From assembly GCA_964016885.1 (NCBI GenBank), contig OZ024742.1, positions 147,808,001-147,872,000 on the forward strand: DNA of 64,000 nucleotides, given 5' to 3'. Source of the stretch: Eledone cirrhosa (Eukaryota). Every line of letters begins with the position of its first letter. The first letter of the stretch is position 1. The notes under the pieces are model-generated. The model saw only the letters and a program-made list of their open reading frames with translations. It did not search any database and was not told the origin of the DNA. A program made the position numbers and the translations under genes. Below, piece after piece: positions 34,572-62,999 of this stretch.

Positions 34572-34602
<31 letters not shown>

Positions 34603-35775: not shown

Positions 35776-36153
35776 TTTCCTAACAAATGTGTAATGTATA
35801 CAAACAACTCAGCAGTTTATCCACCTTATTTACTGTTCCTAGTTGAATTTTGATTTTAATTCACATAAGGCAGAAATTTAAGAAGTTACATCTTAATGGA
35901 TTATTAATACCTTGTGAATATTTTACCTTCATCACAGACATTTCTCTTTTGACAGGAATTTGCAATCAATTACAGCTGCATCTTTTTTTTTTTTTAAATG
36001 AAGTTGAAAAAATTTCACAACCAGTTTTTCATTGCTTAGCACATATGTCTAACAATACATTGCTTTGCTTGAGTCACCAATGGATGTATGTGTGTATGGT
36101 AAATGCAGTAGGCATTGCTTTGTGATAGCCACAGGAAGACAAATTAGTAGGTA

Positions 36154-36220
36154 TTATAGTTCAGAAACAGGTTTGATATCAGATAGATAATTGTTTATCA
36201 CAGTCCGTGCCTTTACATAC
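36154..36220 (-). CDS. RASSF2: RASSF2/4-like last coding exon (SARAH C-terminus)
   Basis: Acceptor TTTTCAATAG; (K)YVKARTVINNYLSDIKPVSEL*; phase 2 matches the preceding exon. Confidence 0.75.
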
Positions 36221-36873
36221 CTATTGAAAATAAATAAAATGTAAATTAAATATTACATTATGAAAATTGAAATGGTTAGATAATTACTTGTTCATAGTGA
36301 CAACAATTTTTCTTTTAAAAAATTTGACCATCAACCTCCAGGTGGGTTAAGCGCCTTACATGATCCCACACTCTTACTGAGTATATTTTATCATGGCACA
36401 TAATTCTGTTGGCTCTGAGTCTGCCTGACTGGCAAACAGATTACATTCCTAGTTAGTTAGTTTATAATGAGTAATTAGTCACATAAATAGCATCCAAATT
36501 TAAAAAGGCATATTTTCAACACTACAAGTGTTTCAAGGTCATTTACTCTCTTAAAGCAAGGGTTAACTTCAGTCTCCATACTTATCATTGAGGCAATGCT
36601 TTACAACCAGATGCCCTTCCTGCCACCAACCTTTTTAGTTGCCTCTTATGATATACAGAAATACAATGCACCTATTCTAAATCAGATACACACAGTAGTA
36701 AAATTTCTCCAGCAATATGCTTTTGCAATAGAAAACATTCTAGTGATACTAGGGTAGATAAATGCCTTATTTTTTTCATGCTAGCAAAAACAATTGCATA
36801 TAAATCATCTTTTGGTAGTTAATTTATCATTAAAAGTAATAATTCAAAGGTTTACATATAGTGAAATACTTAC

Positions 36874-36971
36874 TTATCCTTGATTTTTTCTACATCTTTT
36901 TCTTCATCATCTAAAAATTTCTGTAATAAGCCTTTTAATACAGCCTCGGGTAATGCTATTAATTGCTCTAC
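36874..36971 (-). CDS. RASSF2: RASSF2/4-like exon (SARAH domain)
   Basis: VEQLIALPEAVLKGLLQKFLDDEEKDVEKIKDK, comparable to the RASSF2 [26 protein letters not shown] exon; donor AA|GTAAGT; 98 nt, phase 0-2. Confidence 0.85.
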
Positions 36972-38659: not shown

Positions 38660-38990
38660 CTATTCCAATCCAACCCTTTTCCTGTCTGTTGGAGGAACCT
38701 CTCGCTGGTTGACCTTGACCACTTCTGTTTAGTTTTGGCCATGTCAGGGGTATAGCCATACTCACCATGCTTGGCTAATTAAGGGTTGGTGGAACTATTT
38801 AACCCATAGTTGAGGTGGATGGCCATTGACTGAGGAGTTTATCCACCCTTTTAACAGCTCGTTTTCCATGCTGCTGGGGTTCCACTCACCCTCATCCCCA
38901 GAGCAGGGCCTGGTAGGAGAGCTAGTTTAATCGCCAACCACTGGACCACAAAGTAGGTTGTACTAGGCAGAAGCCGGACCTGACATTCAG
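38660..38990 (-). mobile_element. Probable LINE 5'-UTR-like fragment (GC-richer island)
   Basis: Composition shift only; no ORF. Confidence 0.3.
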
Positions 38991-41657
38991 TAGTTAATAA
39001 TTAGCTGAAGTCTTTAAAAAGTTTATTGATAGTAGTTAGTGAAAATTAAAAATAAGAATTTTTAGATTTTAAAAACATTAAGATTAGCTTTAGATAGCTA
39101 TCTGTCGCACAAAAAGAAAAAAAAAAAAATATATAAACAGGTAGCTATTAAAAAAGCCATTTATTAGAAGCATTTATTCAGAACATGAAGTCAAAACAAG
39201 AATGTCACATACAACTTCTAGCAGCTGGAAGGGGAGAGAAGGATGTGAAGTTTATTAACTGTGTTACACTATTAAATTAAACGGTAGACTTTAGAAAACT
39301 TTATTTCAATAAAATAGGATGAATATATATAACATATTCATAAGACATTCTTGTTTTGACAGATCACAACCAGAAGAGATTAAAAAGCTTATTTTTATTT
39401 GCTGTTATGTCTAAGCCAGAGCATGAAAAAATGACCAGACAGCAGCAAGCAGCTGTTTTCCTTAGAGTGGCTCAAAGAACAATTACAGAGGAGGAAAGAT
39501 ATATCAGTTGGTTAGAAAAGGAAATGAAGAAATTAATATTGTTAAAATAGTATATAAGTTATTAACCACTCTAATGGAAACAAACTTTGATAGCAATGCT
39601 GTGGTGTAGAAAAATATTCTAATGCTACATAGTAGTAAGAACTGAAACCAGGATTAGAGCATTGCAGAATAAAATTGCTCAGTTTACTAACGATATTGAT
39701 TTCAAAAGATCCTTTAGTTACAGCTTCCACAGTACGCTGGGCCTAATGAACAAAAAAAAAAAGAAAAGAAAAAAAAAAAAAAAAAAAAAAAGGACAACAT
39801 TTAACAAAACTCTTTTTACTCAAATGGCATTATTTATGTAGCACAGTTTTCAGAATGGGGGATTCTCCAACACATTGTCTTAATCTGTGGCTGGTGAGAG
39901 GAAACAAAAAACAGGAATCCTAAATATTCTAATTTTTAGAAATTAGATAAGTTGGGAGTTCATAATAAATATATCATATCAAGAATTTATGAGAAAATAT
40001 ACAGTTAATATATTATGTTATAACTCTGTTGTTTTACTTCCATTTCTCTTATGCTTGTATTGGAGTGTAGATTGATCACTTGTTTTGAGTTGCTAGATTG
40101 GCTCCCTGCATGTAGCCTTGACTACATCATTTTCTTGGGCATTTTCCCTTTTAAGGTTACATATTCTTGAAAATTATTGGAGCAGATGATTTTAACATTA
40201 AACTCTTAATAATACAATCGGTGTAGTACTTATTTTCTGCTGTCCAGTGGTTAAGAATCTCATTATTACAATTAAGTATACAATATATTGCAATGGAAAG
40301 AACTAGTTTAATAATAAAATTATTGGAATTTTAATGAAAACTGCTATAGTTCTATACTTCTCTCAATTGGTAAATCAAAGAATCACAGTTCAATAGTGTT
40401 ATGAACCTAGTATCAGCTATTAGCTTATTTTATATCATATTTTTTGTACAATAGCATTGATTGTTACAGGTAACCACCGAGACAATCAGTGGTTCACTGC
40501 ATTTATGATAATCAGAGCAGCAAATCAAGCCTTTGTAACTTAGACAAAACAAAAACAAGGTTCAAAAACTCAGGTTTATAAGTTTTCTCACCTGTCTTAT
40601 ATCTTTGGCAATATATATATATATATCAGTGTGTGTCATAAGAAGCAACTAAAAGCATTGGTGTCAGTCACAAAGGGTATTCAGTATTGCCTCATGTTCC
40701 GTTTAACCCATGACACAATGGAAACGTCAACATAAAAAATGAAGATATATATATAATCATTGTTTTTCTATCTGCTTTTCCATGCAGGAATAGATTGGAT
40801 GAGACTGAGGTAGTTTTCTATGGTTAAATATCTTTTCTGATTCCAACTTGTACTTGTTTTAAAACATGGTATATAGTCCACTGATATTCATCTTGTTGAA
40901 ATGCTGAGCTGTGGGACATTGGCTACCTAAGAAGTTTTATGGCAAAGACAAGCACACACACACCCATTAGACTTCCATAGTTTCTGTTTACAAAATTTCA
41001 CTTATAAGGTATTGGTCAATTCAACGCTATAGTAGAATGCACAATGGGACTGAACCTGGAACCATGTTAATCACACAGCCATGCAATATAAAGCCAGTTC
41101 TTTATAGAATACTTTTATAATCTTCTCAATAATTGGAAGTGGATCACATGAATTTTATTGTATATTTGTTTGAACATGACCAGGATTATATGTAGATTGT
41201 AGACTAACCAGAAGAAAACCACTGCTTAACTTGAAACTTCTAGTCAGCAGAATATATAGATGAAGGAGTCTGTATAAGGTTAACCCTTTACATTACTCTA
41301 TATTTCCTATTGAATTTTTGTGGTAAAGGCTTTATCTTATATAATCATGTCACATAATACTGAAGCTACAAGATTTTGATGTTATTTATTTTGAAAACAA
41401 TACCTAAACATCTATATGAGCGACTAGTTATGGCCGGTTTAAATGCTAAAGGGTTAAGGTAAGAGTGATACAACAATACCTAGAGTAGTAACACATTTGA
41501 AATCTGGTGAATTATATATTGTATATTCTTTTATTTGTTTCAGTCATTAAGCTGCATCATGCCAGGGCAACGTCTTCAAGGGATTTAGTTGATTATATCG
41601 AACCTAGTACTTACTTAAAAAAAACAAAAAACACACACAAAAGTATTCTGTACTTAC

Positions 41658-41827
41658 TTCAGTTGGTAAATAACAGGTCTTCTCTTCTATTGGTTCAACT
41701 TCTTCAGGAACAACTATTGAGCTTACATAATCTTTCTCCCGTATGAAGATTTTGGCATTAGTTTCGTCAGCACCTAGTCTTAGACGGACTTCTAAAGGGA
41801 TCTCATCAATTCTAATTTCCCTTTCAC
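41658..41827 (-). CDS. RASSF2: RASSF2/4-like exon (RA domain end)
   Basis: (G)EREIRIDEIPLEVRLRLGADETNAKIFIREKD...YLPTE; donor GAA|GTAAGT; phase 1-0. Confidence 0.88.
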
Positions 41828-42490
41828 CTATGTAAAAAAAAAAAAAAATATATATATATATAAATTTACTTAAAATGATATTCAGACTAGTGTATTCACT
41901 TTGATTGATATAGTAACAATGTTTCAGCCATGGTACCCTCTGGCTATCTTTAGTCGAGGAGGAGCAGCACAAAGCTTGTCTCTCTGCTTTTTTGGCTCTA
42001 CCCTATAATTCACCACCACATCATTTTTTGTCTTGATGTCGCAGACCTAGTTCGTGGTGTTCAGTAGGTTGTCTCAGAAATTTTCATTCCCTCTACGTTA
42101 CAGTTTTCCTGTTCTTACTGTCGTATGCATCAAGTAAGATTTCTCAGAATTTGTTGTCAGCTGAGGTTTTTTTAGAGACTAACAAATCCGGAAAAGGACA
42201 TGGATGCTAAGTTTGTCAGGTATATCCGATTTGGCATCTGGTCAAAATGCTTGCCACAGAATTGACTCCCCAAAAGGCACCCAAAGGAGCTAGTGAAATT
42301 TGAATCCAGAATTAAGTCATCTCACCTATACACTAACCCACTGTTCTTGACCTTGCAGGATTTGAACTTAGAGCAAAGAGAGCTAGTACAAATACTGCAA
42401 TTATTCAATATTCTAACAACTGTGCCAATTTGATGTCTAAATGTAATTATATGTATAAGACAAATTTTGGTATTAACTAACTGCACTCAC

Positions 42491-42542
42491 CTTCAGCTTC
42501 TGTGACAACATATAGAGAAAATTCATCAGCATCATTCTCAAC
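42491..42542 (-). CDS. RASSF2: RASSF2/4-like exon (RA domain)
   Basis: VENDADEFSLYVVTEAE+G, comparable to IENSAEEFALYVVHTSG; AG acceptor and GTGAGT donor; 52 nt. Confidence 0.9.
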
Positions 42543-43167
42543 CTATAAAAGACATTATAATAGTAATAATAGGAAATAGAAGCTACCAGATCATTAGAAT
42601 ATCAAATATAGTTCCCAATAGAGAAAAATTTTGGTTGTAATATAGCTCCTCTTAGAGATAAATATAGCTTGTAATATAGTTCTTAGAGATAAATATAAAA
42701 GAAGAACTATATTAGCTACCCTAATAATAATTTATATAAATAACTAATATAGTCAGTTGGTTGGGATAGTTAATATTGCTCTAGATCACTTAATACCATT
42801 ATATGAGCCAAAGAGGGAGCCTCTACATGGTCACTCAACCAGCTAAAAACAGTAGCCATAACTCCATCAAACCACTCTCTACTGTCTTAAAAAAAGGTAA
42901 GATATATTGGGTAATGTAGCTTTTCATATAACAAAAGATGGGATGGTCATGACTAGAATGCTTTTGACTACAGGTTAGCACAATCAGAGCTTATCTGTGA
43001 GCTAAACAACAAATATTAAAACCAAAGAAATTATAATTTTCCTATCAACCATTGTAATCAGTAAAATGAAGGTAAAGCACAGAGTTTCGTAAAGGTATTA
43101 GTTGAGGGGTAGAAGGAGAGAATCATAGGCAGTTTCTTTCATTTAAAATATGGTAATAAAAGGGTTA

Positions 43168-43560
43168 ATCATCATCATTATCGTCATCTTCCACGCTAGC
43201 ATGGGTTAGACGGGAGTTGTCCTAATTGGGAGCAAGGTTGGTTGGGTGATTGGGTCTTGCTCGTATAATACTATCTGGCAGGTTTTCTACGGCAGGATGC
43301 CGTTCCTAACACCAACCACATTTACAGTGTGGACTGGGAATTTTTTACTGTGTTACCTACACGGCTACATTACAGCGTGGACTGTGTTTTTTTGTTGTGA
43401 CACCTACACGATCTCGATCTCATTATTTCATTAATTTGGACTGGATGTTGTGATACCAACTTTACAGAGAAAGAGTGGTGTTGGTGGTAGTGGGAGGATA
43501 GATTAGGGGTAGTGGGTTGGGGGTGTATATTTGGTTAAGCGTTGCCTACTGACTGCATAA
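43168..43560 (-). mobile_element. RTE 3' UTR fragment
   Basis: Homologous to 59310-59680 in reverse orientation. Confidence 0.75.
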
Positions 43561-44702
43561 ATATTTCTACATATATACTAAATGTAAATAGCATTAGCTA
43601 GAATATAAACTGTAATTTAACTGTTAAAATAAGAGGCGATGGAGCCTACAAAAAAAAATTTAGGTTTGTGTCAAATGCAGAACTTTAGAAATGAATTAGT
43701 ATTTTTATGTGGCTGCCAATTCATTCACTTTGTTTAAAAGATCAGTCTTAGCTGTCTTTCAAAGTAATCAGCTTAGCTTAGTTTACTTTGTCTTTCTAAT
43801 TCTCCACACCTGTCACTATCACTTAAGATGTTCAGGTGTTTAATTTAAAATCAACAAGCTTAGTTTGACAAGTTTCACTGGAACATAGCCCACTCTGAAT
43901 TAGAAATCAGACCCAGCTTATTCTCAAAGTAGCAGACCTAACTCAGCACCAAATTGTACCTGGTTCTATTATTCAAAACCGTTTGTTTTAAATTGTTTAT
44001 ACTTCATCTATAAATGATTTTAGGTAAAAAGCTTTATTAGAGCACCAGCTGAATAATGAGGTTAGTTCATCATCCAGTTTAACACTGCGACATAACATCA
44101 TAGGTCTTTTAGGAGAGTTTACTCTTGCAAGTATTTAGCATGTCTCTGGTTTGAAGATTAACTCTTTCCCTTTCTTTCACTACACTACAATGTTCATACC
44201 CTTGAACAAATGAAATAATTTGAGTTTGCAGTTTAGCAAGCTGACAAACCAAAAATGAGTACAATATCTAAACTATAATAAAGTAAGAAGCGCAGGACTG
44301 CGTACGGTTTATAATTTTTTTTATCCCATTAGTAAAATAAGTTGGATTACTTTGAATAAATAATGAATAAATATTACATAATTTATCTACTAAATTTCGT
44401 GGCTGTTGATTAAATATATTTTGTTTATTTAAAGATTCACTTCTTTAAAATTTCTGAAATGTCAACACTTCCAGTTGACCATCGCTTAAATAAATATACT
44501 AATTTTCCCCCAATGCAGTTTATATATAATATCGTCTTTTTTAATGCATCATTAATTACGTTACTGATTAAATAAGACAGTGTAACGCAGTCTTCGTTTA
44601 ATTTCTATGTATTATATATATTGTCAATTACGATTTTATTTGATGTATCATATCTACATGTATATATACTTGCGTATAATATCAATATACACACTACACA
44701 TT

Positions 44703-44740
44703 CTAGCAGAAAACCACCCGAAGGGTGGTTTTTCTGCTAG
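44703..44740. repeat. 38-bp hairpin ending in CTAG (Helitron-terminus-like)
   Basis: CTAGCAGAAAACCACCC-GAA-GGGTGGTTTTTCTGCTAG followed by T. Confidence 0.7.
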
Positions 44741-44808
44741 TGTACCTAAAGATACAGCAACGGTCTATTAGTTCTTGAGAGAGAGAAGTATATATTATTG
44801 AGACAAAC

Positions 44809-44910
44809 CTTGAATTTTTCGAGCAATGTTTTTATAACGAGCGGAACAGTCATTGTGCTGTTTACCGTAACACTAGTACAACTGCCGATCACTGGGGTGA
44901 AAACACGAGT
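44809..44910 (-). CDS. RASSF2: RASSF2/4-like exon (RA domain start)
   Basis: TRVFTPVIGSCTSVTVNSTMTVPLVIKTLLEKFK, comparable to [34 protein letters not shown]; 102 nt, phase 0-0. Confidence 0.92.
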
Positions 44911-45044
44911 CTAGAGAAAGGAAGAAAAAAACAAAAACAAAAAAAAACGCACAATTACTGTAGTGTGGAGTTTGTGCTCATGTGTCAGAAATAATAATAA
45001 TAATAATAATAAAAACTGACTGAAACCAACAATGGATACAAATA

Positions 45045-45120
45045 CAGGGTGTCCCTAAAAATGTATACATACTTCAACATCACTGGTAATAGTGTGTATA
45101 CATTTTTTGGGGACACCCTG
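45045..45120. mobile_element. 76-bp Tc1/mariner-type MITE
   Basis: TA|CAGGGTGTCCCTAAAAATGTATACA...TGTATACATTTTTTGGGGACACCCTG|TA; TA target duplication. Confidence 0.85.
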
Positions 45121-46222
45121 TATATATAAATTATATATATATATATATTAGCAATGCTGAGATACAACATATAATTATTGCAGATAAAACATTAACAATT
45201 TTTAAAAAGCTATAAAATATAACAAAAAGATTTATGGAACAGTATTGCTGAGTTTCAGTCGTCATACTTATCAATTAGTCACATCAATTTCTTTATTTAT
45301 TTATAGCTCACACTTAAACAGGTTTGTATAACTAGCTTCCCATGAGGTTGCATCTCATTGGAGGTTTCTTGGGTGTTTTATGATAACCCCTCCTTCCAGT
45401 CCTACCACGAAAAACAAGAAGAACACAACTTTTCCATCGATCAATGAATTGAACCCACAACATTCATGATCAAGAGGCCAACAGCCTTGCTTCGCGTGTT
45501 CACACTAACTACTTTCTATAAATGGAAGAGACTATGTAGCCGGTTCAGGTAAAATAGACTCCCAGGCTATTTAGCCGATAGAGTGTCAGGCACCATGTAT
45601 TGCAGCCCAAGTTAAGACAATTTGAAATCTTTTCTATCATCAATTGTTAAAATAAAAGTTAAATCATTTAGACGTCATCTTATAATTCTGCTTGTGTTTT
45701 ATCCATTCGTAACGTATGTTACGCTTTAGTTACACACACATCTGAGTTCCATGGCATAAAATGTTTAGCAGAAAGTCAAATATTTTCGAAATTAAGAATT
45801 TTAGCAGTAAGTCACGACCTGTGGTCTAAAACACTATTGTTTAGTGGTAAAATAAGCTTCCGGGAACCCGGTTAGAGTAGCGACCCTTTAGCGTTTACCG
45901 GTAAAATAAGCTTAAAAAGCATGTTTGTCTATTTTGCCGGGATCGACTTTATAAATTATCTACTTTATGAACAAATACATTTTATAATTCGAAATTATCT
46001 AAAGCTTTCATGGTACCAGTGTCGTGTGTTTGTCAAAATTGTAGTTAATCTCATTTAATAGTGTATTAGTGAACAGCTTACAGTAGTCAATGAAACACTA
46101 TGACTATGGCCGTCTTGCAGACGCTATCGCTAACTAGAGAATGTCTTATCCTGTTAAAAACTTTAAAAAAAATGAAAATTAAGTGGAAGGGAGAAGTGCC
46201 TGTGGAATGCTCAGACACTTAC

Positions 46223-46243
46223 ATCAAAATAAAAGACGGACAT
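46223..46243 (-). CDS. Candidate alternative first coding exon of the RASSF gene (MSVFYFD)
   Basis: ATG TCC GTC TTT TAT TTT GAT|GTAAGT consensus donor in phase 0, in a CpG-rich patch upstream of the 44910 acceptor. Confidence 0.45.
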
Positions 46244-46980
46244 ATTTAAATCACACGTCACGCGGGGCGCTGGAGTTTCTAATAGTTTTTGAACCAAGTC
46301 AACACACGTAGCGAGCCTACGACGTTGGAATAACAAAGCACTTTTGTGGGCAAGGCAAGTTGCCAACGATGATGACAACTTCGTTGTCGGAGATCTAGCT
46401 TCCCCAAACGTCTCGAGCGCTAAAGACAGGAAAACTTTGTCGATAATTCCTGGTGTTTAAGATTTTTTTTTATCTCATACGGCTATGAATGTAGTGCCCG
46501 TTAAATTTACCGCGGCATCGTGAGCTGTTTTGAACATGGACACAGCGTAGCATCAGTAAACAAAACAAAGCAAAAAGTAAATGTTCACACCAGTTTGTAT
46601 AGAAATCAACAGAACAAGAAGTGAAGTGAAATAACCCAGCGAGGAATTGAACCTGCATTACAAACTTGAATTGCTGGCAGTCTATCAACACTTTACAAAG
46701 AAAAAAAATAGTGAATAAATGAATAATAAGCATTTTATGGCCGTCTCCCCAGCTAAATCAAGAGTTAGTGTTGCATCATGGGATCCTTCATGAAGCTATT
46801 TCACGGCCGACCTTCTCTGGTACCAGCGCTTTTAGTTTCTTCTTGCGACACGATACAGTACCTATAGTACATAAATATCAACAATATTTGTTTCAAATCA
46901 AGCTTTCTGTGGAATTTGACTGAAAAATATATACATAAAAAGAATTTAAAACAACATTTCTAAAAGAAAAAGAATCTCAC

Positions 46981-47163
46981 ATCATAATTGTAAATATGTC
47001 CGTTTATAGAAGCTCGTTTCCACTTGCTTGGTCGGTCAGCTCTGTATGCAACTGTGTTGGATTTGCGAATATTTCGACGTCGAACAACACCATCTAAATT
47101 GGGTACAATCAAACTATCATCCATGCCATATTTTGGGAGAGTTGGTTGTAGAGATTGTACTGC
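46981..47163 (-). CDS. RASSF2: RASSF2/4-like exon
   Basis: AVQSLQ...RRRNIRKSNT...KRASINGHIYNYD (SINGH.YN is the RASSF2/4/6 signature); acceptor CTTGCAG, donor GTGAGA; 183 nt, phase 0-0. Confidence 0.92.
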
Positions 47164-48083
47164 CTGCAAGAAGAAACAAATCGAAATTTTACAAAATAGT
47201 TTTTTACTTTTTAAATCGAACCGTAGATTTTATTAAAAGTGTCAATATGACGTTTGTGGTGATTGGCGTGCACACACAGCCAATGGGCTTCATTATAGTT
47301 TCCACCTACCAAATCCACTCGCAAAGGCATTAGTCGAAGACACTTGCCCAGAGTGCCAACGAGTGGTACAGAACCGACGGTGCTTCTCCAGAACAATCTC
47401 ACCCAAATGATAAATTAATGTAAATACAATCGGAACTAATTTATTCCAAATTAGAGTTATGGTTAGGATTAATTCAATTCTGTAATTGACACAAGATTGA
47501 CAGTCATACAAACAATCCCCAATTTGGAATTAGTTCAGATCAACTTTCACCTTAATTTGAATAAGTTCAGATTATATTATTGTCTTATTTATATTAATAT
47601 ATAATGGTGGGGTGGGACTATTCTGGAGAAGCGCTCAACCGACCGTAGAACAACAAAAATTGATGCTTCCACCTTTCTTCATGATTCTGACCAACCAGAG
47701 CTGATCTTAGACTAAACAATAACTACAGCAACAGAAAAAAAAATAACAAAAGGAATAACGAAATGTTTTTTTTATGTATATATATATGTATATATATATT
47801 TGTTATTTACGAAAAGTGAGTCAAAAGTTAGACGGCTGTTTTCCACCAATTCGCTGTACATTATTCTTTTTACTCTACAGTAATAGTCACAGTAATAAAT
47901 AGTGGATGCAGGGTTTTGATAATGGTGATCACAACAATGATAATTTGAGCAAGGATTGCTAGGGCAATTATGCTATACTGGTGTCATGTGGATATCAGGC
48001 TCTAGTGGTAGGATTCTGTCCGTAATTTTCGTTTTGCTGGAACTGTTTGAAAGTAGCGGAGCATTCAGACGGCAGTGGCAGTT

Positions 48084-48503
48084 TCACATTGCTAAGTGTG
48101 CTAGCATAGCAGCCATCTTCGTCTGTTCCGTCGCTAGCACAGCTTGCTCGGTCGCACATACGGCCTGTTTAGCAGCTGCACTTTTTTGGTGTTGGCCTGC
48201 ACAAGGCAAGCAACCACATTGGGTGTGGCAGTGACTGTGATGGTGCGGAGCAACATGACAGCAATGACCGTGGCAGTGACCGTGGCAGTGACCGTGGCAG
48301 TGTCCGTGACAGTGACCGTGTCCATGACAGTGACCGTGTCCATGACAGTGACCGTGTCCATGACAGTGACCGTGGCAGTGACCGTGTCCGTGGCAGTGAC
48401 CGTGTCCGTGGCAGTGACCGTGACAGTGTCCGTGGCAGTGTCCGTGGCAATGACCATGGGTGTGCATAATAATGGAATCCGTTATAGAATCACAACAGCT
48501 CAT
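48084..48503 (-). CDS. 139-aa His/Gly/Cys-repeat protein (putative metal-binding), intronic to the RASSF gene
   Basis: AAACATGA start; 68-residue HGHC/HGHGHC tract whose nucleotide variation is confined to synonymous third positions (CAC/CAT, GGA/GGT, TGC/TGT); non-repetitive Cys/His-rich flanks. Confidence 0.6.
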   Translation of the reverse strand: MSCCDSITDSIIMHTHGHCHGHCHGHCHGHCHGHGHCHGHGHCHGHCHGHGHCHGHGHCHGHGHCHGHCHGHCHGHCHGHCCHVAPHHHSHCHTQCGCLPCAGQHQKSAAAKQAVCATEQAVLATEQTKMAAMLAHLAM

Positions 48504-48743
48504 GTTTCTGCTAAATCATACAAAAATTTCAAAATAGATATTGTATTTTATCCTGCGAATTGACACAATTGCGTTTGTGTAAACCAGACTTTATTTTAAC
48601 AATCTCCTTTCAGACTGCTAAAGCCTCACCAAAGTCTCAACAAACAGCCTTATCTAGTAGCTTCAAGTTGTTAAATGAAAAGCGGATAACGCTTGATGCG
48701 TTTCCACTAGATATTAAATTTTCAAAAATTACGAGGCAGACCA

Positions 48744-48757
48744 TTATGACGTCATAA
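48744..48757. promoter_or_regulatory. Full palindromic CRE/ATF site
   Basis: TTATGACGTCATAA (core TGACGTCA at 48747-48754), ~240 bp upstream of the 48503 ATG. Confidence 0.4.
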
Positions 48758-49372
48758 AACGGACAACAATATACTTTGACCGTTGTAGAGAGATGAAACT
48801 GTTGTTCTCTCTCACGAAATTAGAATTGTTTGAAAGAAGAAAAAAAGGTTAACTTGAGATAGATATAACTATCGTTTTTCAATTAGAAGACTCCGTTGTG
48901 AAAATTATGAATAAAAATTGAACCCATAGCAAAATCTAGTAATTAATTCGCATATTTTCCATACTTTGACCCCTCCCCCTCCATTTTGTGAGTATGTCTA
49001 GTATATACTGTCGGAAATATGTCCTGGCTTTTAAACCCCACCATACCTTCGTCAATGGATGATAACAATTAAATTACTTTTGTACAGAATCTAGGAAGAG
49101 TCTTATTTTAAATATAGGGTCGTAGTTTTGATCGCTACGCACAGGTGTACTATTCGAGTTTCGTATGTGAAAGAAGTGGCAATTTTAGATCATCTGTACT
49201 CCAGCAGTTAGTGACTACAAGCAGCTCCCTAATGTCAATTTTAATGTTTAGGGAAGGGTATGCCTAGTTTTCCTGTAGGTATCCAAGAAACCATAAGCGA
49301 TTTTCTTTTACACTCTGCGTAATGATGTTTCCACAATTATTAATACCCGGAACATTTCAACTGGAAAATAAT

Positions 49373-49556
49373 TGTATCTACTTTTGGCACAAGGCCAGCA
49401 ATTATCCCAGTGTATTACTGGTACTTTATTTTATCGACCTCGTAAGGATGAAAGGCAAAGTTAACCTCGGCGGGGTTTGAACTCATAATGGCAAGGGCCG
49501 TAACTCTATACGTCAAAGCATGGCGCCCGACCCTCTACCGATACTGCCAATCCACC
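49373..49556 (-). mobile_element. Meta-type SINE
   Basis: Reverse-complement homolog of 27929-28100; TSD GGAAAATAAT at 49363-49372 and 49557-49566. Confidence 0.8.
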
Positions 49557-49616
49557 GGAAAATAATGATAATCAACAGTTTCTGTATTACCAGAAAAACT
49601 GATTAGGTCTTGTCTA

Positions 49617-49657
<41 letters not shown>

Positions 49658-51762
49658 AAACTTTCAAGAGAAATTTAAAATATTCACTTCATTCCTCTTG
49701 TGGGAAAATATAACTTTCATTATCAATATCAGTTATATTATTGGAGTCATTGCTATCGCTATTCGTAATTAAGGTATCTAATGTAAAATCCACTACTTAG
49801 TTTTGCCACCTGTTTACGCCTGCCTTTACTGCTTCTTTCATAAATTCTTCAAATCTAGTCGCTACCCGTGAATGTGAAGCTGGTATCCATTTTTAACATT
49901 TTTTTTTTTTATTACGACGTAGAAAAAATATCAAAAAATTCAGGTATAACAAATTTAACGTTAAAAAATGTCGCCCGTATTGGTAACGAAATGGATAGAT
50001 AGCAACGCTGAGTGACATCTGAACGATAGTAATTCCAAATTCACAATTGATATTTAAAATATGAATCAAATATCAAACAATAATTGAAAATTGTTGGCTA
50101 TTACTGAGAAGCTAAATTGATTTAGAAAAAAATTTAGCTAATTATTTATAATCTATATGATATATTGAATGTAAAGGAAATGAGTGTGATGGAGTTTATC
50201 TAATAGTTATGTAATAACAACAGTGTATGTAAATGGTGACACAATCATGCTGCGAAAGTTTATGAAGAAAAGAAAGAAAAAAAGACCCCAAAGAGCTGAT
50301 TCTCAGAGACCAAGGCCATAATCCTCCCCTTGCAATCCCAGGTTTCTTCACTTTGAATTTCCATCAAGTGATTTTTCACACAAGTCCTATATTAATATGC
50401 ATGCATGGTCCCGTAACTACCGAGGGAGTCGTATAGGGGTGTATTGAGATACGGGCATTTAAAAATCTGGTGGAGCCCATGTCTCCAGGTATTCATATGC
50501 AGCAGGTTTCTTCCTGAGAAGGATAGAGAGTGAGAGAAAGGAAGTGAGAAAGATATATCGAGGAAGAATCTACTCCAATACTTGACTGGTACTTTTTTTT
50601 ATCGACCTCGAATGAATGAAAGGCAAAGTTGACCTCAGCTAGCTTTGAACTCAGAGATTCGGAAAGAATACGGCAAGTCAGTCTATCTGACGTTCTAACA
50701 ACTCTGTCAATTCGTCGTCCTTATAACATTAACGAGCCAAACCTTAATAATTGTATAGTCCTATCCAATACAGGATTTTCTTTTTCGGATGAGAGGGGGC
50801 GGGCTGTTAAATTCGTGATAATGAATTGCTAGTCTTATTGATAGAAATTAAAATCAACATGTTTAAGTGATATATTTTAATATAAGTAGGTTTTCAGGTT
50901 AGTAACACTAATACAGAAAGTCGGAACAAATACAATAAAAAACCTATTAAAAAGGGTTGAGTCAATGAGTGAATCCCTATGTAGTCACTCCACCTGCTAG
51001 AAATAACAGTCAAGTTTCCTAAAAAAAAAAAATCACTACTTGCTTAAAAAAAAAAAAGATAGGATGTTTACGGCCGAAATATCTACTCCACATGGGACTA
51101 AACTACATCTATTGATATTTATTTTGTCAAAATGATTAACTTTTAATATCCTATACATCATGAAACCACATTAGCTATACATTCTCGAAATTACTGCATC
51201 AATGGCATGGCCTCAGTCAGTCGGCTGGAACACGTAATACGAAAAATTAGAATCTTTCGTTTATTTCAATTTTTCACAATATGACCAATAAATATACTAT
51301 AAACATTTGAATCATCAAACTCTAAATCATTAGTTAAGAGCTAAATCCCGATGTAAATACCTTTAGAAAGACAAATATGATACAGTATCATATTACACTA
51401 TAAAATAACATACGGTATACTATTCATTCTTCTTAATAATTACTCATTGTTTTTACAAGTTCAGAGGAGGTTTAATATGACAGAAAATGTCTGGAGTCTT
51501 GCATACTTGCTAAAAGGATTGAAATAATATTAGTAGTTATCTTTACCTCACTACATAAGTAGTTCTAACTAGATTATGGACCCCCATTAAAGTAAACTTT
51601 AGATCAACGTTGCCCAAGCTAATGTATACTTTGTTTAAAAGGACGCAGAGTGAATCAAACGTGATGTGAACTATCACTAAGAGTGCACATAAAATGTGAA
51701 GAATAATGACCGTGATAAAAGGTGACTGGACAACTAGGTAGGTGGCTACAGTACTAAAGTAC

Positions 51763-51897
51763 CTCATACTCAAAGTCACAGGTAATAGATTTAACACGTA
51801 AACCTAGTAGTATTGAGTCAGACTTGGAATCAGAAAAATCATTATCATCATAATCTTCATCATCATCATCATAAATGTCATCAAACAAATCAAACAG
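51763..51897 (-). CDS. Candidate acidic cassette exon of the RASSF gene
   Basis: Strong acceptor CCTTTTCTTTTCAG; LFDLFDDIYDDDDEDYDDNDFSDSKSDSILLGLRVKSITCDFEYE; donor GAG|GTACTT; 135 nt, phase 0-0. Confidence 0.45.
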
Positions 51898-51924: not shown

Positions 51925-52465
51925 TATAGGTGGTTTTACAGAAGGTAGCACGGTAATATAGATAGGTTTACAGGGGGTAGCATGGTAATATTTATAGGTT
52001 TACAGGGAGTGATATGGTAATATAAACAAGTTTATTGGTAATATAAACAAGTACAGGGAGGTTTACAGGATGTAACATGATAATATAGAGAGGTTTATAG
52101 GGTAAAACATGACTGTAGATAGGTTTACAGGGTGTAACATTGAAATATAGAGGTTTATAGAGTGCAGCATTGTAATATTGAGGTTCATAGGGTGTAACTT
52201 GGTTATATAGTTATGTTACATGCTATAAAACCTCTATCAACATCATCATCATCGTTTAACGTCTCTCTTCCATGCTAGCATGGGTTTAGATGGGAATTGT
52301 CCCACTTGAGGCAAGATTGGTCATCTCGCTCATATAGGACTGCGTCAGGTTTTCTACGGCTGGATGCCCTTCCTAACACCAACCACTATATTACTGTTAT
52401 TCCCTGTAACGGCAATATAGAACTTTACAGAGTATAACATGGTACTATAGAAGTTTACAGGGAAA
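51925..52465. repeat. ~30-bp minisatellite interrupted by an RTE-tail insertion (~52238-52388)
   Basis: Repeating ATATAGRNAGGTTTACAGGG..TAACATGGTA units. Confidence 0.7.
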
Positions 52466-52924
52466 ATTATAAGCTAGTTTACATGAAAATATAGCTACAT
52501 TCAGGTGAGTGAAACTTCTCCAATCATACTAACCGAACAAGGTGATCAACCTTGACAATGTCCCTGTAGAGTGCAGGAAAGTATGTAAGGGAGATAAGAT
52601 CTTAGTCCATCTGAGAGATCAGTGGCTCAAATTAAGCACTGATTTGGTCTGTGACAGCCCATCTAACACTTGCTTGCAAGAAAAACAGATGTTAAATGAT
52701 ATTGATGATAGTGGCATGATAAAATGCACTCAGACTATACAGTAAAGTGATCCATGAAAGGAATGTCTGTTATCCAGTTTTAACGGGAAGAGGAAATCTG
52801 ATTATATTGACCCCAGTACTTGACTGGTGCTAATTTTATCAACCTTGGAAGGTTATAACTAGATGCCAAAAAGGCCTTAGTCCAATGCTCTAATCATTGT
52901 GACAGTTCACCACCATAATAATAA

Positions 52925-53085
52925 TAATGGTTTCTGATTTAGGCGCAAGACCAACAATTTTGGAGGAGAGGAAAGTCATTAAATCAACCCCAGTGCATTA
53001 CTGGTACTTTATTTTATCAACTCAATAAGGATGAAAGGCAAAGCTAACAACCTTGATGGGATTTGAACTCAGAATGTAAAGGGAT
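52925..53085 (-). mobile_element. Meta-type SINE
   Basis: CCCAGTGCATTACTGGTACTTTATTTTATC...GGATGAAAGGCAAAG...TTTGAACTC. Confidence 0.7.
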
Positions 53086-53741
53086 ACATTCAGGCTTTAG
53101 GTAGAGGGGCCTGTAGGAAAAATATATTGCAGTCGCCATTTCATGCAATAAATAAAAATTGGCAATGTACCTGTGTTGGGATGGGCACACAAAGATTGGA
53201 ACCTGGGAATATCACAACACATACCAGTAAGGAACAGGAACTAATGGAGGAGGCTAGATGCTACCAGCTGGATATAGTTAGGGTTTCTCAACAAAGTTCC
53301 ATCGCTTTGGGTCTGTAAATTTGGATGGAGGTTGGAAACTTCACTATTCAGGTGTGGTGCCAGAAATGACTGCACAGGCGGGAGTGAGGATATTCACAAG
53401 CCCCCAGCTGTCAGAATGTGTTATGAACTGGATACCATTAAGAGGGAAGATTTGTCTCTTGAAGCTTAGAATAAAAGATAGGTCTCTGTGAGTGGTGCAA
53501 GTTTATGCACCAAACAAGGAATCCAAATACAGATCCTTCCTTGGTGAAGTCACTACAGCATTAGATGTAGTTCAAACTGAGTCATATATACTAATGGGAG
53601 ACTTCAAAGTACATGTTGACATTGACCACTGGAAAGGAGTGATTGGAAGGAACAATACAAATGGAGAGGCTTTATTAGACTCCTGTTCAATGGACTCTAT
53701 TGTGAACACCTTATTGCAGCACAGAGACATCCATAAATAGA

Positions 53742-56700
53742 CTAGGAAATTCTGGAGAGTCTGAAAAAAAAAATCTGGACACTGAGTGACAATGCCAAAG
53801 ATAAAGACAAATTCACCTCATGCTGCCGAACGAAAAAGCAAGGACTCCTCCTCTTTGTTTCGGCCGCGGATGGCCAACATAACCCCAACCCCAGCCCCAC
53901 CGTTCCCACCCACCAAATGCAATCCAAAACTTCAGAGTTGGTACCATGAATGTAGGCACCTTAAAAGGTCGCTCTAACGAGGTTGTAGAAATGCTTGAAC
54001 GTAAGGAGGTTGATGGTTGCTGTATCCAAGAGACCAGGTGGAGGGGTGGGTCTGCTAGATTCATTGTGGGTAAAAAACGATGCTATAAGCTTTTCTGGGT
54101 GGGAAATGACAATGGGCTGGGTGAGGTAGGAATCATGTTAGCAGAAAAATGGGTAGATAAGATAATTAACGTAAATAGAGTGAACGACAGAATAATTAAA
54201 ATAAGACTTGTCCTAAATAGAACTACTGTGACAGTAATATCTGCGTACGCACCCCAATCTGGACTGCCTGGCGTTATAAAAGACAGATTCTATGAGACAT
54301 TGATGCTCACGACCTCCCAAATAACCGACAGTGACTACATAATTATTGCTGGCGACCTAAATGGTCACGTTGGACAACATTGTGACGGCTATGACGGAAT
54401 CCATGGAGGCTATGGGTTTGGTACTAGAAATGAGGAAGGCGCCAGAATCCTGGAATTCTGTGACGCAAATAACCTAACTGTCTGTAACACTAACTTCAAA
54501 AAACGAGACAATCACTTGATCGCCTATAGATCAGGGGAACACGCCAGTCAGATAGATTATATCCTTACCAGAAGACGTGATAGAGTCATCATCATCATCA
54601 TCACCGTTTTACGTCCGTTCTTCCACGCTAGCATGGGTTAGACGGGTTGTCCTGTTGTGGGCAGTGTCTGGTCGGCTGACCATGCCTTGCTCATACAGGA
54701 ACTGATCTGGCTTGATTTCTACAGCTGGATGCCCTTCCTAACACCAACCTCATTTACAGTGAGTGCTGGGTGCTTTTTCGTGGCGCCTACACGTCCACTT
54801 TACAGTGTGGGCTGGGTGCTTTTTTGCCGTGGCACCTCCACGGCCACCTTGCGGTGGGGAGGGGGGGGGGCATATTGTTTATATGCTTCAGCATGTACCC
54901 ATGGGAGGTCGGGTACCCTGTATTACTGCGTGACGCCAGAAGTCACGGTCGTGTGTCATTGACTTTGAGAGGTGTAGTTGGGTAAGGTCGGCTTTTATCA
55001 CCTCATCCCAAGTCATCTTGGGTCTCCCCACTCCGCGGTTTCCATCAACTTCTAGTGCTCTGCACCTTTTTATGCAGCTGTCATCCTTCATACGCATCAC
55101 ATGTCCATACCAGCGTAACCGCCTCTCCTGCACGCAGCATTTGATTCCTCTTATGCTCAGTCTCTCTCTCAATTCCTTTATGCTTTGTTGTTCACGTATA
55201 TTACTGTTACACATCCATCGGAGCATGCAGGCTTCGTTTCTCTCTAATCTACGTAAGCGCCCAGGTCTCACTACCATGCAACATCGCTGTTCGGATACAC
55301 GCATCATACAGTCTGCCTTTCATTCTGAGGGAGAAGCCTTTTGCAGCTAGCAGTGGTAGTAGTTCCCTAAACTTCTTCCATCCCGTTCTTACCCTAGTTA
55401 TTGTACTTTCTGAGCACCCACCTCCGTTGCTAATTCGGTCACCTAGGTAGCAGAAGCTGTCTACTGTTTCTACAGGGCCCTCCCAGAGATTGGTGGTACT
55501 TGTTTCCTGTGGCTGTTTGCTTGCTGTTTCAGCACAGCTGCTGCATGTGAATCCTACATTCTTAATTAAGCTTCCTGAGATCCCGCTACATCTCTTGTGT
55601 ACCCATTGTTTGCATTTGGGGCAGAGAATGGAGTTCCTACCTACACCTTTCCTACATACTGAGCAAGGCCATTTCCCTGAGGGGATCTGGGTTCTGTTTT
55701 CTCGTCTACTTACAAGGACCTTAGTCTTTGTCATGTTGACTTTGAGGCCCTTTCTCTCTAGTCCCTGCTTCCAGGTTTGGAATTTATTCTCTAGTTCTAC
55801 CATAGATTCAGCTATGAGTGCGAGGTCATCAGCATACAGGAGTTCCCATGGGCATCCGGTCTTAAACTCTTCCGTTATTGCCTGCAGGACTATGATGAAC
55901 AGGAGAGGGCTAAGAACAGAGCCCTGGTGGACCCCAACCTGTACGCTAAATTCCTCGCTATACTCATTGCCAATCCTAACTTTGCTGACTGCTCCCCTAT
56001 ACATGGCTTGTACCGCTTTCACAAGCCATTCATCTACTCCTAGTTTTCTAAGAGCCCACCAGATTACTGCACGTGGAACTCTGTCAAAGGCTTTCTCAAG
56101 GTCAACAAATGCCAAGTAGAGTGGCTTACTTTTAGCTAGGTACTTTTCCTGTAATTGCCTCACAAGGAAGAGGGCATCAGTGGTGCCTTTCCCTGGTACA
56201 AACCCAAATTGCATCTCGTCTATATTCACCCGGTCCCTAATCAGCTGTGCTATAACTCTTTCTGTTACTTTCATGACCTGGTCCATCAACTTTATACCTC
56301 TATAGTTTCCTCTATCTAGTGCATCGCCTTTACCTTTGTAGCAGTTGACAATGATGCTACTGCACCAATCTTTTGGTATGGCCCCCTCTAGTATTACCTG
56401 GTTAACGATACGTGTGGTTATAGTGTGACCTACAGACCCAGATGCCTTCAGCATCTCGGCAGCTATACCCGATGGACCGGTTGCCTTCCCTATCTTCATA
56501 TCTCTGATTGCCTTACTTACTACGCTGCCGCTGACTTGTACTGCTGGTCCCTCTATAGGGTCTACGTGGGGTAGGGTCTCTTCTTCCCATGCATTCTCCT
56601 CATTTAGTAATCTATCATAATGACTCTTCCATGCATCTTTCTTCTCAGCACTTGTGAGGGCAAGCTCACCTTTATCATTCCGGATACACTTCTCTCCAAT

Positions 56701-59680
56701 GACATCACAACTATCTCTGACACACTGCCTCGCAATCTTGAATACCTCCTGTTTCTGGTCCTCACGTTGTAAAACATGCTTGAATTTTCTATCCTCTGCT
56801 TCCCTCCTAGCTAAGGATACTTGTCGCCTAGCTTCCCTCTTGGTCTCTATGTAATGTACCCTGCTCCCCCCGTTCTTCCATTCTTTCCATGCCTGTCTCT
56901 TAGCCTTGACTGCTTCAGTGTCTGTCGTAAACACTAAATCCCTCCCCCATGAAGAATGCACCTCCCAACATATACTCATAGTCAGTGACCTCGTAGTCAG
57001 GACAAGACGTACTCGACAACAGAGGAGGACTATCCTCAGGAGAAAAATATGGAAGCTAAAGGACCCCACAGCCAGTAATAAATTTAAAAGCATATTACTT
57101 GATGCTTTTGACAGTAAGGAAGAGCAATTAGAGTCGTACAATATAGAGGAACAGTGGGAATTCCTGAAAGCTAACTTGCTGAAGGCGGCAGATGACGTCT
57201 GTGGCTGGAGCAGACCTATAGGCAGGAGGAGAGTAACGTGGTGGTGGAACAGTAAGGTGGAGGAGTCAATTAAGGCCAAAAAGCAGGCTTGGAAAGTATG
57301 GCGAGATGGAGGAAGTAGAGAAGACTATCAAGTGGCCAGGAGGGAAGCTAGGAGACAAGTGTACTTCGCAAGAAGGGAAGCAGAGGAAAGAAAGTTCAAG
57401 CATGTTCTACAACGCGAGGACCAAAAACGTGAGGTGTTCAGGATTGCTAGGCAATGTGTCAAGGAAAACAGTGATATTGTCGGGGAGAAGTGTGTCCTAA
57501 ATGATGATGGTGTACTTGCCATCACTGACGCTGATAAGAAGGTAGCCTGGAAGTGTCACTACGAAAGGCTACTAAATGAGGAGAATAAATGGGAGAAAGA
57601 CAGTCTCCCCAACATCGATCCAATAGAGGGACCAGCAGTGCTAGTTGAAGGTAGTATAATAAGAAAGGCAATCAAAGATATGAAGGCGGGTAAGGCGGCT
57701 GGGCCTTCGGAAATACTTGCTGAAATGCTGAAAGCATCTGGAACGGTGGGACACACTATGGTCACCCGGATAGTAAACCAAGTCATACAGAATGGGGTCG
57801 TTCCGAAGGACTGGCGTAGCAGCATCATCATTAACTGCTACAAGGGTAAAGGAGATGCCCTAGATAGGGGTAACTATAGAGGTGTTAAATTAATCGACCA
57901 GGTCATGAAGGTCACTGAAAAAGTAATAGCGCAACTAATCAGAGAGCGAATTGATCTAGATGAAATGCAGTTCGGGTTTGTGTCAGGTAAAAGTACCACA
58001 TACGCTCTTTTCATTGTACGACAACTACAGGAGAAGTACCTAACTAAAAGTAAACCCCTATACTTAGCTTTTGTTGACTTGGAGAAAGCCTTTGACAGAG
58101 TCCCCTGTTCCATTATCTGATGGGCTCTTAGAAAACTAGGTGTTGATGAATGGCTTGCGAGAGCTATACAAGCCATGTATAAAGAAACAGTCAGCAAGGT
58201 TAGAATTAACAACGAATATAGTGAAGAGTTTAGCGTAAAGGTTGGTGTTCATCAGGGCTCCGTCCTTAGTCCCCTCCTATTTATTATTGCCCTTCAGGCT
58301 ATAACAGAGGAGTTCAAGACCGGCTGCCCATGGGAACTCCTATACGCAGATGATCTAATGCTCATAGCTGAATCAATGGCCGAACTAGAGAAGAAATTCC
58401 AAATATGGAAGCATGGCCTAGAATCAAAAGGCCTTAAAATTAACTTGTCTAAGACTAAAGTTCTAGTTTGTAGGAAGGAAAATAGGGCACCAGTCCCATC
58501 TGGGAAATGGCCATGCTCAGTGTGTAGGAAAGGAGTAGGCAGAAACTCCATTTTATGTCCCAAATGCAAAGTATGGGTGCATAAAAGATGTAGTGGGATC
58601 ACAGGTAAGCTAACTAAGAATATAGATTTTATATGTGGCCGGTGCTCTGGTGCAATAAGTAGCAGCAAGTGCCCACAGAATACTAGCTCATTCCATTGCA
58701 CAGATGGTTCTATAGAAATAGTGGACACCTTCCGTTACCTGGGTGACAAAATCAGCAGTGGTGGCGGCTGCTCCGAAAGTACAGAAGCTAGAGTCAGAAC
58801 TGGATGGAAAAAGTTCAGAGAGCTTATACCACTATTGGCCGCTAAAGGGTTCTCACTAAAAATGGAAGGCAGGCTGTATGATGCCTGCATACGAACAGCA
58901 ATATTGCATGGCAGTGAGACCTGGGCATTGTATGCAGAGGATATACGCAGACTGGAGAGGAACGAAGCATGCATGCTCTGCTGGATGTGTAATAGTAATA
59001 TACGTGAACGGCAAAGCATAAATGAACTAAGGGAGAAATTAGGAATAAGAGGGATCAGATGTTGTTTACTCGAGAGAAGACTACGTTGGTACGGTCACGT
59101 GATGCGCATGAAAGATGACAGTTGTATAAAAAAGTGCAGGGCGATAAAAATAGATGGTAGCCACGGAGTAGGCAGACCCAGAAAAACCTGGGACGACTTG
59201 CTAAATTCCGACCTCACACACTTACTCCTCTCCAAGACAATGTCACTGGACCGAGATCTTTGGCGATACACAGTAATACAGAAGACTCGCCTTGCCTAAG
59301 TACAAAGCGAAACCTACTACAGTCAGTAGGCACCTCTAACAAAAATACACCCCGGCCCCACTACCCCCACCCCATCCACACCACCCCTTCCAATGTAAAG
59401 TTATGTTGGTACCACAGCATCCAGTCCGAAACAAATGAGGGTGTGTAGGTGTCACGACAAAAAAACACACAGTCCATGCTGTAATGTGGCCGTGTAGGTA
59501 ACACGGTAAAAACCTCCCAGTCCACGCTGTAAACGTGGTTGGTGTTAGGAAGGGCATCCAGCCGTAGAAAACCCGCCAGACAGTCCTATACGAGCAAGAC
59601 AACCAATCTTGCCTCAAGTGGGAAAATTCCCGTCCAAATCCATGCTAGCGTGGAAGATGGACGTTAAACGATGATGATGA
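53742..59680 (+). mobile_element. Near full-length RTE LINE (APE + RT + PHD-like finger), interrupted at 54586/56917
   Basis: APE ORF from 53946 (NVGTL, IQETRW, SAYAPQ, GDLNGHVG, QIDYIL) rejoins 56920-59299 in frame; single TGA at 58118-58120 where sister copies have TGG; 3' UTR with (GAT)n tail. Confidence 0.92.
54587..56916 (-). mobile_element. 5'-truncated RTE LINE of a sister subfamily inserted antisense
   Basis: RT ORF (AFVDLEKAFD, HQGSVLSP, YADD, C4HC3 finger); (GAT)n tail at 54587; AGT duplicated at 54584-54586 and 56917-56919. Confidence 0.92.
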
Positions 59681-61766: not shown

Positions 61767-62533
61767 GGGTAGAGAGCATCATGTCTGTGGTTATTTAAAA
61801 AAAATATCAAGAAACAAGCTTAGTTTTCTGATATGATAGCTAATCTTATGTTATTTCTGTTTGAATTCTTACAATAAAGAGATAGTTTCTAACAAACAAA
61901 CAAAGCTCCATCATTGGAAAAGAGTTACATGTTATTGTTATATTTATAGATTGTATTTGAAAAATGCCCGTTAACTGGTCACTTCCTTTTTGGTATTACA
62001 ACAAAGGCATTTAGTAACAGAGTCAAGTGCATCTATAATTATAGGTACACATGTAAATTTATAATCCAGAAAAAGAAGAGTAAATTTCAAAGCAATTACA
62101 CACACACACACACGTGTGTGTGTGTTTCCCCTGCTATACACACACACACACATGCATATATAACAGTTGATCAACAAGATCGCAGACCTCATTTGCTTAA
62201 TGAGTGGGGTGGAGCTCGTCAAATCGGACCGAGGAAACAATGTTTCCATTGGTCTTTCCAATTGCTAATACTATCTACCGGTTACAAACCCAGGCAGAAG
62301 GAGCAACATGAAATAAAGTGTCATGCTCAAGGACACAACATGGCATCCAATCTGGAAATTGAACTCACAACCTCATGATCCTTCACAATATATATATAAA
62401 ATGAAATAAGACAGTAAAAGCAGGACAGATATTGCTATGTAATAAAACATTTTTTTACACATTTAAAAAGGAGACAAACCTATAAAATTAATACACAGAC
62501 ACACAAATTGTAAAAGGCATATGACAATCCTAC

Positions 62534-62707
62534 CTGTGGCTCTTCAGGAGCAACATTAAGGCCATTACCAGTTGCAGTAGCATAATAGCTGTGTCTCCAC
62601 GATGCAATTGGTGGTACAGGTACATCATCACAATGTTTTAGCTGTATAGGTATAGTAACTTGCCAATATATTCGTAGAGGACCTTCCAAAATGTCTACAC
62701 CATTTAC
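62534..62707 (-). CDS. RASSF2: RASSF2/4-like N-terminal-region exon
   Basis: Acceptor TTCCAG; VNGVDILEGPLRIYWQVTIPIQLKHCDD, comparable to RASSF2/4 IEGLLNI.WGLRRPIRLQMQDD; donor CAG|GTAGGA; 174 nt, phase 0-0; earlier exons lie beyond the window. Confidence 0.8.
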
Positions 62708-62999
62708 CTGGAATAATTACAAAAAAAGTTTTTTTTACTTGAATATGGGCTCTTAACTACTGATGGAGTCATAGGGCATTTAAACCTGGCAAAGACCATC
62801 TCTTTCTACTTCTGAACACAGCTGTGTGCATGTGTGCGTGAGAGAGAATACTAACCCCAATACTAGATACGTGCTTGGTACTTGATTCAGTGACCTTGAA
62901 AGGATGAAAGATAAAGTTTATCTCAGCGAGATTTGAACTCAAAGCACAGAGAACTGGAATGAATACCACAAAACATTCTATCTGTTGTTCAGTTTGTAA

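Follow-up and report, generated by a model that had tools for sequence, protein, structure and literature searches.

Small His/Cys-rich proteins are known from Helicobacter pylori, in which Hpn and Hpn-like serve as metal-storage proteins. Like these proteins, the product predicted from an open reading frame (ORF) on the minus strand of the window (the whole 64,000-nucleotide stretch of Eledone cirrhosa DNA analyzed here) is short, presumably cytosolic and dominated by His, with interspersed Cys and Gly in low-complexity repeats. It may also share their working principle, in which imidazole and thiolate groups would bind Ni, Zn or Cu multivalently. Unlike Hpn, with which we found no sequence relationship, the Eledone ORF belongs to an animal gene, has a regular HGHC period and combines it with a conserved MSCCDS(V/I)TDSIIMHTH head and an Ala/Gln-rich linker. 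Metallothioneins are likewise small, Cys-rich, present in multiple copies and often lineage-specific, and a metal-buffering role is predicted for the Eledone family as well. In contrast to metallothioneins, however, the ORF contains more His (30%) than Cys (16%), and none of the seven family members has a Pfam metallothionein match.

Two further systems are relevant to the arrangement of the locus. Extensive A-to-I editing occurs in coleoid cephalopods, and, as in coleoid stop-codon recoding, in-frame UAG and UGA codons here precede sequence that was most likely once coding. The locus differs from such cases in that no local duplex surrounds the stops and frame-breaking indels lie downstream of them. 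It is also comparable to same-orientation nested intronic genes, since the unit that carries the ORF lies wholly within an intron of its host, on the host strand, and has a putative promoter and poly(A) signal of its own. Based on the comparisons described below, the His-rich ORF, one copy of a dispersed family, is probably an independent nested gene, and the frame that stays open past its TGA is probably a decayed C-terminal tail that now lies in the 3' UTR. The features of the locus are listed in Table 1.

Table 1. Features of the His/Cys-rich unit, its paralogs and the host gene (positions in the window).
Feature	Position	Strand	Remarks
Constitutive upstream exon of the host gene	62531..62710	-	ends ...EEPQ/GTAGGA, phase 0; orthologue annotations join this donor to 47163
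Alternative cassette exon of the host gene	51763..51897	-	45 codons, intact, acidic (LFDLFDDIYDDDDEDYDDNDF...DFEYE); AG and GT flanks
Conserved upstream flank, inferred promoter and 5' UTR	48504..48865	-	67-81% nucleotide identity to 7 other loci
His/Cys-rich ORF	48084..48503	-	139 codons and TGA; MSCCDSITDSIIMHTH, then (HGHC)n, then Ala/Gln-rich linker ending MLAHLAM-stop
Tandem array of 12/18-nt units encoding the HGHC repeats	48261..48459	-	
Post-stop stretch, decayed C-terminal tail relic, likely 3' UTR	47870..48083	-	homology to L009 and L010
Best-conserved block of the 3' region, inferred 3' UTR end with poly(A) signal	47800..47873	-	ends TTTTC/GTAAATAAC
TA microsatellite (47773-47803), T/GT-rich stretch and further conserved flank	47641..47799	-	paralog homology ends at about 47641
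Internal exon of the LIM+RA RASSF-type host gene	46981..47163	-	AVQSLQPTLPKYGMDDS...INGHIYNYD; 3' end approximate; 92-95% identity to octopod proteins
Fuller paralogs			L007 on C5, L009 on C9, L010 on C1, L011 on C28, L012 on C4, L013 on C12
Family fragments			L002, L008, L014

Rereading of the minus strand bore out the landmarks given in the preliminary description. The ORF starts with an ATG at 48503, its coding part runs to 48087, and the TGA at 48086-48084 closes it. The same frame continues through 36 open codons to a TAG at 47975-47973 and then through 54 open codons to TTC/GTAAAT at 47811/47810, where a splice donor leading to the exon at 47163 had been proposed. The phases reported for this donor and for the acceptor (...cttgcag/GCA) also hold, both being phase 0. 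The 139-aa product consists of 30.2% His, 15.8% Cys and 15.1% Gly. Within the tandem array all six frames are open, and therefore neither the openness nor the length of the ORF is informative there. For the stretch that follows the TGA, one stop or fewer per 91 codons was obtained in 563 of 20,000 mononucleotide shuffles, and the remaining two frames contain 6 and 7 stops; the openness of this frame exceeds chance. Contigs from three DNA runs, which may be the source of the assembly itself, differ from the window in 0 letters over 47811-48336; thus, the two stops are not obvious assembly errors. A weak two-copy match (70% identity over 27 nt) was seen between 48056-48082, just after the TGA (NCHCRLNAP), and 48245-48271 within the ORF (GHCCHVAP), the ORF copy lying 189 nt (63 codons) upstream.

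The host is a LIM- and RA-containing gene of the RASSF type. The 61-aa peptide of the exon at 47163 matches 26 proteins, ten of which were compared: eight named isoforms (P0004-P0011, from Octopus sinensis, O. vulgaris, O. bimaculoides and Argonauta hians) and two unnamed proteins. In all ten the corresponding exon is internal, at approximately residues 400-470 of 562-689. In the eight named isoforms it is preceded by ...YYATPTGNGLNVDAEEPQ (...EEPQ) or, in one isoform, by the cassette ending ...FEYE. This cassette exon is the extra segment of O. sinensis isoform X2 (P0004), which alone among the compared isoforms contains it. The O. bimaculoides protein P0011 has one LIM and one RA domain according to Pfam. 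With tblastn we placed host exons at 62710-62531, 51855-51760, 44910, 42542, 41828, 39742, 36971 and 36231-36157; seven host exons follow downstream of 47163, and the stop lies near 36157. The exons at 62531 and 51763 both pair with 47163, and thus the ORF lies inside an intron and cannot encode the N-terminus of the canonical protein. It is nested in the RASSF intron at 51762-47164 or 62530-47164, depending on the use of the cassette, and on the host's strand.

Outside the RASSF locus the unit recurs elsewhere in the genome. It extends from about 48865 to about 47641 and comprises an upstream flank of approximately 350 nt, the ORF together with its post-stop region, the supposed donor and approximately 170 nt past the donor. 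When three parts of the unit were searched against the 3.0-Gb genome, 5, 9 and 6 places were found, and together these define at least 7 fuller copies (including the one in the window) and at least 3 fragments, on 8 contigs. The last of these searches, seeded with the 3' block, recovered zero loci beyond those already known. The copies share 67-81% nucleotide identity with the window unit, and none of the others adjoins a RASSF exon. The depth of the DNA runs is flat across 45.9-49.4 kb, at about 6-29, which indicates that the unit is not a high-copy repeat. A transposon origin was considered and rejected: the ends of the unit carry neither terminal inverted repeats nor long direct repeats, and its depth is that of single-copy sequence. 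A high-copy element (49364-49557 in the window) is found no more than about 1 kb upstream of the unit, and likewise upstream of L007, L009, L012 and L014, with 83-95% identity in the main matches. Its recurrence could be coincidental, the repeat being very abundant, or could mean that these loci have a flank in common.

The ATG is retained in all seven fuller copies, as is an N-terminal peptide that follows the pattern MSCCD(S/C)(V/I)TDS(I/L)I(M/L)H(T/I)H. Immediately after the ATG, gap lengths are multiples of three; gaps in the upstream flank are of many lengths. Pooled pN/pS, calculated from small samples and non-independent pairs, is 0.22 for 13 N-terminal codons and 0.58, indicating weak constraint, for 25 linker codons. 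The C-terminal parts vary. L011 ends three residues before the window copy (...MLAHMC-stop), L007 and L013 run from ...MLSHL into a long (PCxPCx)n, and L012 has a frameshift ahead of the linker. Three forms of the C-terminal module can be distinguished across the family: a short form, a Pro-Cys repeat and a CCDHH tail. We also observed that the ORF closes 0-3 codons past the conserved MLAH in the window (LAM-stop, 48084-48095), in L011 (MC-stop) and in the fragment L002 (stop at once), with differing codons in each. This pattern of ends just past the linker suggests repeated independent truncation.

Comparison with the paralogs identifies the most likely origin of the open frame past the stops, which would be a relic of the family's own coding tail, disabled by two stops and by changes of frame. 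Two of the six paralogs have continuous ORFs that enter the homologous sequence: L009 (149 aa), ending ...CHGCCDHHHHCSPTATITVMKK before its stop, and L010 (150 aa), ending ...LPDPNIQLTPMYHSCGCNPCPNCHGCCEHHIQNSDATMTKKE before its stop. The homologous read-through tails are ...PMYHSCGCNPCPNCHGCCEHH...TKKE-stop in L010 and ...CHGCCDHHHH...VMKK-stop in L009. The window sequence ...LPLEPDIHMTPV, its stop and then HNCPSNPCSNYHCCDHHYQNPASTI... is homologous to the L010 ending, with 136 of 189 positions identical in the pairwise alignment. In this alignment the window TAG falls opposite a TAC (Tyr) codon of L010. At the same position of the homologous frame, L011 has TTC, L012 TGT and L007 TGA, although these assignments depend on the alignment. 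The unbroken passage of the L009 and L010 ORFs into the homologous tail, together with the pairing of TAG with TAC, argues that the open frame is a coding relic.

The relic is unevenly preserved. From about 48010 to 47900 the alignment with L010 contains one 3-nt gap, and the last 38 codons or so stay in one frame. From 48083 to about 48010 the window row is broken by gaps of 13, 2 and 11 nt, and L010 by one of 2 nt. The ending typical of the family (TITVE-stop) is present in the window in another frame, with its stop at 47872-47870, having been shifted by one extra base and a 12-nt duplication. In the other four paralogs (L007, L011, L012 and L013) the frame is interrupted by 6-9 stops. Beside this, we noted that in L007, L011 and L013 the terminal ...T(I)T.TKK motif stands in the frame of the ATG despite 7, 6 and 9 intervening stops, respectively. 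The chance that the TKK tail falls in the ATG frame in all three is about 1 in 27 if the copies are independent. These in-frame tails could hint at something beyond plain decay.

Within the 3' region, conservation is highest in a block at 47873-47800, where the mean share of the six paralogs that agree with the window at a column is 0.66-0.75. In the two intact copies (L009 and L010) the stop codon precedes this block, whose last letters are TTTTCGTAAATAA(A/C), and AATAAA occurs at exactly this place in three of the seven copies (L009, L012 and L013); the window and L010 have AATAAC. Beyond the block, each copy has a TA microsatellite and a T/GT-rich stretch, the latter conserved. RNAalifold found no consensus structure for the conserved 3' block. 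By comparison of these copies, the GTAAAT position is likely to be the poly(A) signal of the family, and the T/GT-rich stretch its downstream element. A poly(A) signal at this position would imply an independent nested gene that ends near 47790, the outcome that the preliminary description had itself named as speaking against its proposals.

The upstream flank contains candidate promoter elements. A CRE-like palindrome, TGACGTCA, is present at 48754-48747 (as ATGACGTCAT), approximately 245 nt ahead of the ATG, and a TATA-like element, TTAAAATAAAG, lies around 48595, approximately 90 nt ahead of the ATG. We take both names from the match of these motifs to consensus sequences. The CRE-like motif is intact in four of the eight aligned copies and carries a single-base change in the remaining four, three of which are CpG-to-TpG/CpA changes. 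We infer from these elements that the unit has a promoter of its own. A transcript initiated there would be nested within the RASSF gene and would end at its own poly(A) site near 47790, overlapping the GTAAAT. From it, the window copy may still produce a 139-aa cytosolic protein, for which binding of Zn, Cu or Ni through His/Cys pairs is predicted on the basis of composition.

Three models had been offered in the preliminary description, and all of them assumed that the frame leads into an N-terminal or first exon of the RASSF gene. This premise fails, as the exon at 47163 is internal in each of the ten proteins. The model that had been preferred is an alternative first exon: the nested promoter would produce a transcript spliced from 47811 to 47163, the His ORF would act as a uORF, and a LIM-less RA isoform would start from the ATG at 47861. 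We consider this very improbable. The unit does lie on the host's strand and apparently carries a promoter-like flank, and there is a GT at 47810 with phase 0 on both sides of the junction. However, by a crude count over seven consensus positions the donor matches MAG/GTRAGT at three of seven, a score exceeded by 9 of the 55 GT sites in the interval 48083-47171. Phase 0 is shared by 28 of these sites, and the phase match between 47811 and 47163, although true, is weak evidence. The peptide that would begin the isoform (MYSELVENS) starts none of the ten orthologue sequences, and the ATG at 47861 is kept in only three of the seven copies. The block with this ATG and the GT is conserved at six loci without a RASSF exon, and since the 47163 exon has one locus only in the genome, those six copies of the donor block cannot feed it. 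The GT also overlaps the position at which paralogs have AATAAA. The model of a fusion gated by editing or readthrough, joining the His/Cys-rich frame to the RASSF domains, has no support either: no SECIS element and no stable local fold were detected, and indels that are not multiples of three follow the TGA. Recoding confined to the nested gene, by A-to-I editing, readthrough or Sec insertion at the TGA and TAG with no RASSF fusion, is in our estimation extremely unlikely. It would draw on the editing for which coleoids are known, on the homology of the tail to coding sequence of L009 and L010, on a post-stop frame open beyond chance, and on tails that several interrupted paralogs retain in frame with the ATG. 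Against it, no SECIS was among the 6 matches that Rfam models gave in 30000-50000 (both strands, E<=1), and the 300 nt surrounding the stops have a local folding energy of -46.4 kcal/mol, less stable than that of shuffled sequence (mean -52.2, z = +1.40). The gaps relative to L010 between 48083 and about 48010 would make the readthrough product non-homologous there, the extra base near the end puts the terminal motif of the family out of frame, and 6-9 stops in the interrupted paralogs are too many to recode. The third model, an N-terminal exon once continuous and now decayed, was right in part: a once-continuous, now decayed frame agrees with the open frames of L009 and L010, but what has decayed is most likely the C-terminal end of a separate His/Cys-rich gene and not the N-terminus of a RASSF protein.

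A nested gene with a decayed tail, which we favor over the foregoing, would be compatible with a short conserved intron in its 3' UTR that runs from the GTAAAT at 47810 to TTGTTTAG at about 47713. Four of the seven copies keep GTAAATAA, and a pyrimidine-rich tract with TTTAG is common to the window, L007, L010 and L011. The same features nevertheless suit a poly(A) signal followed by a U/GU-rich downstream element, and AATAAA is present in three copies; we regard the intron as quite improbable. A different challenge to the nested gene is that the unit was copied as DNA only: the duplicate in the window, possibly along with most of the family, would be dead, silent and in decay, with neither the ORF nor the tail expressed. 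The birth-and-death pattern of the family (a frameshifted L012 and the fragments L002, L008 and L014), the CRE-like motif altered in half of the aligned copies, the uninformative ORF length in an array that is open in six frames, and the lack of a homologue among 1.84 billion representative proteins all agree with a dead duplicate. The conserved ATG, the gaps in threes after it and the N-terminal pN/pS do not, nor does the conservation of the upstream and 3' blocks, which equals or exceeds that of much of the unit. We therefore consider a dead duplicate unlikely and retain the nested gene as the probable reading.

Relatives of the predicted protein were sought by several methods. A word-based homologue search returned just 3 low-complexity matches, with no convincing relative among 5.8 billion and 1.84 billion proteins overall. 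A profile built from the seven members gave 54 matches among the 1.84 billion representatives (best E = 1.7e-7); the 10 of the 54 that were inspected are all HT, HG or HS low-complexity stretches. No Pfam family scored above the cut-off for any of the seven members. No relative was found in the annotated proteomes, which implies either that octopod annotations omit the gene or that low-complexity filters hide the family. In the PDB, the His-rich cytosolic loop of ZnT7 (8j7t) gave a weak, composition-driven match to ORF residues 15-68 (E = 0.013); unlike ZnT7, the ORF includes no transporter domain, and the likeness is one of low complexity only. The best PDB match was 6su9 (named pyridoxal kinase; E = 3.8e-9), to the same repeat region of the query, and it is presumably compositional. 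One unnamed protein of 285 aa (P0039) contains ...VCCKDSITD... followed by a His-rich stretch, which echoes the CCDSITDS of the family N-terminus and its His repeats. The upstream part of P0039 resembles, we assume, the C-terminal domain of a cation-diffusion (zinc) transporter, and the likeness to the family is probably a coincidence. A literature search of titles and abstract openings found no such His/Cys-rich family in cephalopods. Judged by these sequence and literature searches, the latter at the level of titles and abstract openings, the family apparently represents previously undescribed, octopod-restricted small proteins rich in His and Cys.

A metal-related function would fit the composition, and we tentatively entertain a broader picture that is possible but doubtful. 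In it, an octopod-restricted orphan (HGHC)n family would be a histidine-based counterpart of metallothioneins, with CRE-bearing promoters and birth-and-death turnover of its C-terminal modules, and one member would be expressed inside the RASSF intron. We also searched for TGCRCNC, which we take to be the consensus of the metal response element (MRE); it is absent from the upstream flank, and its only occurrences are at 48466 (in the ORF) and 47272 (downstream of the unit) on this strand and at 47275 on the reverse strand.

Several other features of the window were observed. Word depth in the three DNA runs reaches 10^4 to 10^6 (unique sequence being about 10) at 54000-60000, 49337-50003, 52005-53338 and 44001-45334, which marks these segments as high-copy repeats. 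The 54-60 kb block has a GC content of 0.45-0.47 and is richer in GC than the rest of the window. A palindrome at 45038-45127, inside one of the high-copy repeats, has weak Rfam matches resembling microRNA precursors (best 34.9 bits against a gathering threshold of 75, E = 0.012), and it is most likely not a microRNA gene.

These results remove a tempting candidate for an editing- or readthrough-gated fusion in cephalopods, and they illustrate that paralogues from the same genome can settle such a recoding case without RNA. They also correct the model of the host gene: the 47163 exon belongs to the interior of a protein of about 630 residues, near residue 400, and the gene has an alternative cassette exon at 51897-51763. 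For the biology of octopods, a lineage-restricted family of His/Cys-rich proteins may be relevant to metal handling.
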